This document shows positions 15,463 through 17,427 of a stretch of DNA of 64,000 bases, in pieces. The DNA is from Escherichia coli O157:H7 (GTDB lineage Bacteria; Pseudomonadota; Gammaproteobacteria; Enterobacterales; Enterobacteriaceae). Location: assembly GCF_013167455.1 (NCBI RefSeq), contig NZ_CP038328.1. One strand, given 5' to 3'. The stretch's first letter is position 1. Every line of letters starts with the position of its first letter. The notes under the pieces are model-generated. The model had not been told where the DNA came from. It did no database searches and saw nothing but the letters and a program-made list of their open reading frames with translations. A program made the position numbers and the translations under genes.

Positions 15463-17427
15463 GTGAGCATGGATATAAGCGATTTTTATCAGACATTTTT
15501 TGATGAAGCGGACGAACTGTTGGCTGATATGGAGCAGCATCTGCTGGTTTTGCAGCCGGAAGCGCCAGATGCCGAACAATTGAATGCCATCTTTCGGGCT
15601 GCCCACTCGATCAAAGGAGGGGCAGGAACTTTTGGCTTCAGCGTTTTGCAGGAAACCACGCATCTGATGGAAAACCTGCTCGATGAAGCCAGACGAGGTG
15701 AGATGCAACTCAACACCGACATTATCAATCTGTTTTTGGAAACGAAGGACATCATGCAAGAACAGCTCGACGCTTATAAACAGTCGCAAGAGCCGGATGC
15801 CGCCAGCTTCGATTATATCTGCCAGGCCTTGCGTCAACTGGCATTAGAAGCGAAAGGCGAAACGCCATCCGCAGTGACCCGATTAAGTGTGGTTGCCAAA
15901 AGTGAACCGCAAGATGAGCAGAGTCGCAGTCAGTTGCCGCGACGAATTATCCTTTCGCGCCTGAAGGCCAGCGAAGTCGACCTGCTGGAAGAAGAGCTGG
16001 GGCATCTGACAACGTTAACTGACGTGGTGAAAGGGGCGGATTCTCTCTCGGCAATATTACCGGGCGATATCGCCGAAGATGACATCACAGCGGTACTCTG
16101 TTTTGTGATTGAAGCCGATCAGATTACCTTTGAAACAGTAGAAGTCTCGCCAAAAATATCCACCCCACCAGTGCTTAAACTGGCAGCCGAACAAGCGCCA
16201 ACCGGTCGCGTGGAGCGGGAAAAAACGACGCGTAGCAGTGAATCCACCAGCATCCGTGTAGCGGTAGAAAAGGTTGATCAATTAATTAACCTCGTCGGCG
16301 AGCTGGTTATCACCCAGTCCATGCTTGCCCAGCGTTCCAGCGAACTGGACCCGGTTAATCATGGTGATTTGATTACCAGCATGGGGCAGTTACAACGTAA
16401 CGCCCGTGATTTGCAGGAATCAGTGATGTCGATTCGCATGATGCCGATGGAATATGTCTTTAGTCGCTATCCCCGGCTGGTGCGTGATCTGGCGGGAAAA
16501 CTCGGCAAGCAGGTAGAACTGACGCTGGTGGGCAGTTCCACCGAGCTCGACAAGAGCCTGATAGAACGCATTATCGACCCGCTGACCCACCTGGTACGCA
16601 ATAGCCTCGATCACGGTATTGAACTGCCAGAAAAACGGCTCGCCGCAGGTAAAAACAGCGTCGGAAATTTAATTCTGTCTGCCGAACATCAGGGCGGCAA
16701 CATTTGCATTGAAGTGACCGACGATGGGGCGGGGCTAAACCGTGAGCGAATTCTGGCAAAAGCGGCCTCGCAAGGTTTGACTGTCAGCGAAAACATGAGC
16801 GACGACGAAGTCGCGATGCTGATATTTGCACCAGGCTTCTCCACGGCAGAGCAGGTCACCGACGTCTCCGGGCGCGGCGTCGGCATGGACGTCGTTAAAC
16901 GTAATATCCAGGAGATGGGCGGTCATGTTGAAATCCAGTCGAAGCAGGGTACTGGCACTACGATCCGCATTTTACTGCCGCTGACGCTGGCCATCCTCGA
17001 CGGCATGTCCGTACGCGTTGCGGATGAAGTATTCATTCTGCCGCTGAATGCTGTTATGGAATCACTGCAACCCTGTGAAGCCGATCTGCATCCACTGGCC
17101 GGCGGCGAGCGGGTGCTGGAAGTGCGGGGTGAATATCTGCCCATCGTCGAACTGTGGAAAGTGTTCAACGTCGCGGGCGCGAAAACCGAAGCTACCCAGG
17201 GAATTGTGGTGATCTTACAAAGTGGCGGTCGCCGCTACGCCTTGCTGGTGGATCAATTAATTGGTCAACATCAGGTTGTAGTTAAAAACCTTGAAAGTAA
17301 CTATCGCAAAGTCCCCGGCATTTCTGCTGCGACCATTCTTGGCGACGGCAGCGTGGCACTGATTGTTGATGTCTCCGCCTTGCAGGCGATAAACCGCGAA
17401 CAACGTATGGCGAACACCGCCGCCTGA
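15463..17427 (+). CDS. cheA: Chemotaxis histidine kinase CheA
   Basis: GTG start giving 654 aa from (M)[12 protein letters not shown]; Hpt phosphoacceptor motif [13 protein letters not shown]; internal Met98 is the CheA-short start. Confidence 0.95.

Follow-up and report, generated by a model that had tools for sequence, protein, structure and literature searches.

Tandem in-frame translation starts in the chemotaxis gene cheA are a textbook case in Escherichia coli, and the internal start of the short form, CheA-S, has been known since 1980-1991. The two starts of the K-12 gene, start(L) and start(S), go back to Smith & Parkinson 1980 and Kofoid & Parkinson 1991 (as cited in PMC7696710), and the same arrangement is stated in PMC2716512, PMC3676780, PMC11005335 and PMC12350097. 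CheA-S starts at ATG-98, and mutations of codon 98 eliminate it (PMC7696710). Just two cheA products have been described, both from a single message by way of alternative translation initiation codons, and the endogenous ribosome-binding site is functional in plasmid constructs (PMC2716512). Missing its first 97 residues, the short form uses Leu123 and Leu126 to bind CheZ at the apical loop (PMC7750401), and this binding enhances the dephosphorylation of CheY-P (PMC3676780). In cells carrying CheA-M98L, a substitution that eliminates CheA-S, the polar localisation of CheZ-GFP is lost as well; CheA-S is nevertheless not essential for chemotaxis (PMC7696710). Co-expression of the long form (CheA-L) and CheA-S in Salmonella and other Enterobacteriaceae is credited to McNamara & Wolfe 1997 in the citing paper PMC3676780, and the supplements of a Salmonella riboproteogenomics paper do not mention cheA.

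CheA has been grouped with infB (IF2 alpha/beta), Salmonella ssaQ and cyanobacterial ccmM as an example of tandem in-frame starts (PMC11005335, PMC12350097). In each of these genes, as in cheA, one open reading frame contains an internal SD and start codon that yield a proteoform shortened at its N terminus and serving a role of its own. The proteins themselves are unrelated to CheA, whose truncation differs in that it takes away a catalytic phosphoacceptor and exposes a phosphatase-binding surface.

The cheA locus and its long start

The stretch of DNA analysed here (the window, 64,000 nt) differed from the E. coli O157:H7 chromosome NZ_CP066753.1 (2213658-2277657) at 2 of 64,000 positions, and the 3.2 kb around its cheA start region was 100% identical to E. 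coli O157:H7 genomes. The locus has the same position, operon context, codon numbering (His48, Met98) and product lengths (654 and 557 aa) as cheA of E. coli K-12; it represents the O157:H7 allele, in which both starts are identical to those of K-12, and most E. coli genomes match the 3.2-kb region at 95-99% identity. We conclude that the window almost certainly holds the classical E. coli cheA locus in its O157:H7 version, with tandem in-frame translation starts on one motA-motB-cheA-cheW operon mRNA, and nothing contradicting this reading was found in the sequence, the annotation or the literature compared. The features around the long start and the neighbouring genes are as follows.

14532..15458: motB (RefSeq), the immediate 5′ neighbour of cheA
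15452..15458, + strand: SD-like GAGGTGA of start(L), anti-SD duplex -7.2 kcal/mol, 4 nt before the GTG
15463..17427, + strand: cheA long form (CheA-L, 654 aa), RefSeq annotation with a GTG start
15469..15471, + strand: ATG codon 3, which may serve as start(L) instead; 10 nt from the SD
17448..17951: cheW (RefSeq), the next gene 3′ of cheA
23748..24392, + strand: cheZ (RefSeq), encoding the partner of CheA-S; apical-loop residues W97 and F98 present in the translation

The RefSeq record that carries these annotations, NZ_CP066753.1, additionally places flhDC and motA 5′ of motB, and tar, tap, cheR, cheB, cheY and cheZ 3′ of cheW. The translated cheA frame runs uninterrupted from 15463 to the stop codon at 17425-17427.

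The GTG at 15463-15465 is the annotated start and the origin of the codon numbering. The GAGGTGA preceding it overlaps the motB stop codon TGA (15456-15458), and since the SD of start(L) contains this stop codon, translational coupling between motB and cheA is indicated. The arrangement GAGGTGA-NNNN-GTG-AGY-ATG was shared between the window and the 80 Enterobacteriaceae species sampled (described below). Among the 79 Enterobacteriaceae loci listed, the AGGTGA core was invariant (79/79), the first base of GAGGTGA varied in two, and GTG codon 1 and ATG codon 3 were each invariant. Codon 3 is also where the frames of non-enteric relatives from metagenomes start, some of them with an in-frame stop directly upstream. 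From this sequence comparison it is possible that the real start of CheA-L is ATG codon 3 instead of the annotated GTG. The sequence-only reading had cheA begin at the GTG at 15463, which stands as a statement of RefSeq annotation and numbering and is less secure as the place of initiation, the ATG at 15469 being equally invariant and also a possible start.

Several further features were recorded in the window. Rfam matched the C0465 sRNA (105 bits) at 17971-18046 on the - strand, in the cheW-tar spacer, and a full-length MicL sRNA (374 bits) at 32037-32344 on the + strand, inside the cutC coding region, where it is a known gene-embedded sRNA. Two other matches were just above threshold, naRNA4/CssrE at 46538-46613 on the + strand (61.5 against 59.5 bits) and ES036/CssrF at 36280-36322 on the - strand (45.5 against 37.6 bits). 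RefSeq also annotates a 14-codon 'hypothetical protein' CDS at 28904-28948 on the + strand, between yecT and argS.

The internal start and the short form

The internal start and its product were located as follows.

15745..15749, + strand: SD-like AAGGA of start(S), 4-nt spacer to ATG98
15754..15756, + strand: start(S), ATG codon 98, at which CheA-S is initiated (sequence, conservation and PMC7696710)
15754..17427, + strand: CheA-S, the short form of 557 aa, without His48 and without a Pfam Hpt match, keeping a P1 remnant and P2-P5

Position 15754 lies 291 nt 3′ of the GTG (15463 + 97*3) and is therefore in frame as codon 98; in the translation Met98 stands in the context ...FLETKDI-M98-QEQLDAYKQ.... 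The AAGGA preceding ATG98 gives an anti-SD duplex of -5.4 kcal/mol, which ranks 7 among the 49 in-frame ATG, GTG and TTG codons of cheA and third among its ATGs, with codons 3 and 81 scoring higher. The internal ATG thus carries a ribosome-binding signal, consisting of AAGGA at a 4-nt spacing together with synonymous constraint centred on codons 91-101 (see below).

The 81 nt around ATG98 were 100% identical in K-12 derivatives (e.g. NEB10-beta and H13), so that experiments performed in K-12 are applicable to the sequence of the window. This 81-nt region was identical in 5,343 of 5,378 E. coli genomes; in contrast, the 3.2-kb region was at least 99% identical in just 556 of 5,380. The coordinates, frame, SD, domain content, K-12 identity, conservation of ATG98 and nucleotide-level constraint reported here were computed from the sequences, and the K-12 literature supplies the production of two polypeptides, the loss of the short form in M98L, and the binding and localisation of CheZ by CheA-S. 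By analogy, we infer that the O157:H7 strain would behave like K-12 at the cheA starts, making two polypeptides and recruiting CheZ.

All five Pfam families of enteric-type CheA were detected in CheA-L above their curated cut-offs and in P1-P5 order: Hpt (P1) at residues 8-100, CheY-binding (P2) at 161-223, H-kinase_dim (P3) at 261-324, HATPase_c (P4) at 372-508 and CheW-like (P5) at 514-640. The same search on the 557-aa CheA-S returned these domains minus Hpt. The phospho-accepting His48 lies in the motif AAHSIKGG of the translation and was invariant in the protein alignment of relatives. Solved E. coli and Salmonella CheA P1 structures (6s1k, 2lp4, 8c5v, 1i5n) match residues 1-131/146, and of this P1 domain of ~134 residues CheA-S loses 1-97, including His48, and keeps the C-terminal part, about 98-134. 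Residues C120, L123 and L126 of CheA, which lie in the retained remnant, and W97 and F98 of CheZ were all present in the translations; the role of these residues in binding is described in PMC7750401 and PMC7696710.

The sequence-only reading had made three claims about this part of the gene. An in-frame ATG at 15754 encoding Met98 of cheA proved exact to the base in the sequence, the translation and the RefSeq frame, and its match to the described start of the short form agrees with PMC7696710, the 81-nt identity with K-12 and the SD-like AAGGA. The further claim that the two proteins differ by the phosphoacceptor domain holds for residues 1-97, His48 and the Pfam Hpt match, all of which are lost, but needs amending in that the P1 remnant of about residues 98-134, which serves as the CheZ-binding site, is kept.

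According to the proposed mechanism, ribosomes coupled to motB translation would initiate at start(L) (15463, the annotated GTG) and produce CheA-L, the full kinase that would autophosphorylate at His48, and independent ribosome loading at the internal region (AAGGA, 4 nt, ATG 15754) would produce CheA-S. Because residues 1-97 are missing, CheA-S is without the phosphorylation site and cannot be phosphorylated; its dimerisation, kinase and receptor-coupling domains are kept. C120, L123 and L126 lie on a hydrophobic face of the P1 remnant that would be buried in the helical bundle of CheA-L; in CheA-S this face would be exposed and bind the apical loop of CheZ (W97/F98). CheA-S would then recruit CheZ to receptor arrays, and therefore CheY-P would be made and destroyed in one place.

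Synonymous constraint and alternative origins considered for the short form

Conservation was analysed in cheA of 80 Enterobacteriaceae species, with 74-94% amino acid identity over the first 200 residues, and of the window, giving 81 sequences. Codons were threaded onto the protein alignment, and normalised synonymous-codon entropy was calculated in 11-codon windows. ATG98 was invariant (81/81). Codons 91-101 formed the window of lowest synonymous entropy in cheA, at 0.225 against a gene mean of 0.620 (sd 0.116; z = -3.4), and 3 of 5,000 permutations gave a value as low when the per-codon values were shuffled. Comparably low entropy was otherwise found just at codons 1-11, at start(L), and codons 641-654, in the ribosome-binding region of cheW; the measure therefore picks out translation-initiation regions. 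Within the constrained stretch, Leu92 was encoded by TTG in all 81 sequences, the sole invariant codon among 70 conserved Leu columns, although TTG accounts for 11% of the Leu codons in these genes. The invariance of ATG98 and the synonymous constraint over codons 91-101 are the comparative support that is new here.

The 3′ end of cheA (17383-17427, codons 641-654) ranked third within the gene for synonymous constraint, consistent with a cheW ribosome-binding site and cheA-cheW translational coupling. A few of the cheA relatives among genome loci L002-L081 had early stops (frames ending after 128, 374 and 560 aa, counted from the start), and two gut-metagenome contigs of low coverage (L091, L153) had a frameshift 5′ of about codon 78 and were intact afterwards; in both cases these are probably assembly errors or pseudogenes.

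A second SD-preceded in-frame ATG raises the question of whether the short form, or a third form, starts at codon 81 (15703), instead of or besides codon 98. This ATG stands directly 3′ of GAGGTGAG (region 15695-15705), its anti-SD duplex of -7.2 kcal/mol is stronger than that of ATG98, and it was conserved in 80 of 81 sequences. However, the spacer between GAGGT and ATG81 is just 3 nt, and an SD spacing of 3 nt is shorter than usually needed. At codons 77-80 the family shows free synonymous variation, so that no ribosome-binding site is conserved for ATG81. Moreover, mutation of codon 98 alone removes CheA-S (PMC7696710), and a third form would have to be reconciled with a literature in which cheA has two products (PMC2716512). 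Initiation at ATG81 is thus very unlikely, and as the start of the short form Met81 is ruled out by its lack of a conserved ribosome-binding site and by the loss of the short form in M98L. As a separate observation, the rare Arg pair AGA-CGA at codons 77-78, 5′ of ATG81, was essentially confined to Escherichia sequences.

Met98 might alternatively be a mere internal methionine of a P1 helix, with the shorter CheA arising from CheA-L by proteolysis. Met98 and the motif FLExKDIMQ are conserved at the protein level also in relatives outside the Enterobacteriaceae, so that the residue could be structural and its conservation alone is no proof of a start, and the predicted accessibility of the mRNA at codon 98 was unexceptional (opening energy moderately low, at the 10th percentile in the window and the 14th-45th in six relatives). 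Proteolysis, however, cannot constrain synonymous sites, yet those of codons 91-101 are the most conserved of the gene; it would not call for the SD-like element ahead of ATG98; and M98L alone eliminates both CheA-S and the polar localisation of CheZ (PMC7696710). We regard proteolysis as improbable in the extreme. Equally far-fetched is a separate, shorter transcript from a promoter inside cheA, for which the upstream nucleotide conservation could in principle be cited and no other support was found: it is rejected, since no sigma-70-like promoter match was present on either strand between 15300 and 16000, the conserved stretch stops 11 nt short of ATG98 and is without the sigma-28 consensus, which is TAAAGTTT-N11-GCCGATAA, the Rfam search returned no element in cheA, and the literature describes alternative initiation codons on one message and a ribosome-binding site that works on plasmids (PMC2716512).

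Sequence and folding around start(S)

Tandem translation starts on one message account for the two proteins, and the family alignment bears further on how start(S) may be recognised. Three features were defined here.

15730..15743, + strand: CTGTTTTTGGAAAC, a stretch near-invariant in the 81 sequences, the exception being one CTA at codon 90
15730-15738, + strand: CUGUUUUUG, 5′ arm of a possible hairpin, within CTGTTTTTGGAAAC
15757..15765, + strand: CAAGAACAG (codons 99-101), 3′ arm of the possible 9-bp hairpin, pairing with CUGUUUUUG

The SD of start(S) proved to be lineage-specific. AAGGAC was restricted to four Escherichia sequences of the 81, namely the window and loci L002-L004, and AAG-GAT was found in three others. 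Most other Enterobacteriaceae read ACC or ACG followed by AAA GAT ATT ATG and have no canonical SD; AAA-GAT-ATT-ATG was present in the remaining 74 of 81 sequences, where no good SD lies close to ATG98 and nothing pairs with the anti-SD better than a weak UGGAA (-3.3 kcal/mol) at a distance of about 12 nt from the AUG. This comparison shows that the SD seen at start(S) of E. coli does not appear to be the ancestral signal of the family. What the 80 species share with the window at start(S), besides ATG98, is the near-invariant upstream stretch, whose bases are CTG TTT TTG GAA AC (15730-15743). It is conserved even at synonymous sites and includes the rare Leu codon TTG92 and the weak SD-like UGGAA.

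The stem formed by CUGUUUUUG and CAAGAACAG gave the minimum-free-energy fold, of about -8 kcal/mol, for the window as well as for most relatives, and it would enclose an 18-nt loop (15739-15756) holding the SD and AUG98. For a covariation test, 120 metagenome loci matching a degenerate pattern for FLExKDIMQ(D/E) were added, and pairs were counted on 73 distinct sequences. Pairing was found in 94% of cells, and one of the nine pairs changed on both sides (4 cells); a covariation score as high was reached by 28 of 500 shuffles, which is not significant by the calibration of the tool. The code itself makes Leu (CUG/UUG)-Gln (CAG/CAA) and Phe-Glu codons complementary, and TTG92 was invariant even where CTG would pair better. 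Folding of the 120 nt around start(S) was no better than that of shuffles (z = +0.63), and the Rfam search identified no known RNA family within cheA. A hairpin at start(S) is therefore possible as a predicted structure, and a sequence-specific element, be it a U-run or GGA, is at least as good a fit. Where codon 94 is ACC, a competing small hairpin, UUUUUGG-AAA-CCAAAG, was predicted instead.

These observations suggest a broader proposal, in which nucleotide-level selection on start(S) would extend beyond the SD. The near-invariant CUGUUUUUGGAAAC, 11-24 nt upstream of AUG98, would form the 9-bp stem with codons 99-101 and display the AUG, and in Escherichia also the SD, in the 18-nt loop. The ancestral start would have been SD-poor and dependent on this element, acting as a loop-presented start, as a U-rich site for ribosomal protein S1 or an enhancer, or as the target of a GGA-binding regulator; AAGGA would be a later gain in Escherichia, possibly shifting the ratio of CheA-S to CheA-L. 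We advance this proposal tentatively and consider it, taken as a whole, rather unlikely.

Finding CheA-S again in an E. coli window is nothing new: among bacteria it serves as the standard case of a single gene making two proteins via an internal in-frame start. Genome annotation still carries the long form alone and omits CheA-S. Start(S) is the most constrained part of cheA, and synonymous-constraint scans can flag internal starts of this kind. CheA-S accounts for the recruitment of the phosphatase CheZ to the receptor array. If the proposed control of start(S) were true, the CheA-S:CheA-L isoform ratio would be a tunable, structure-controlled quantity.
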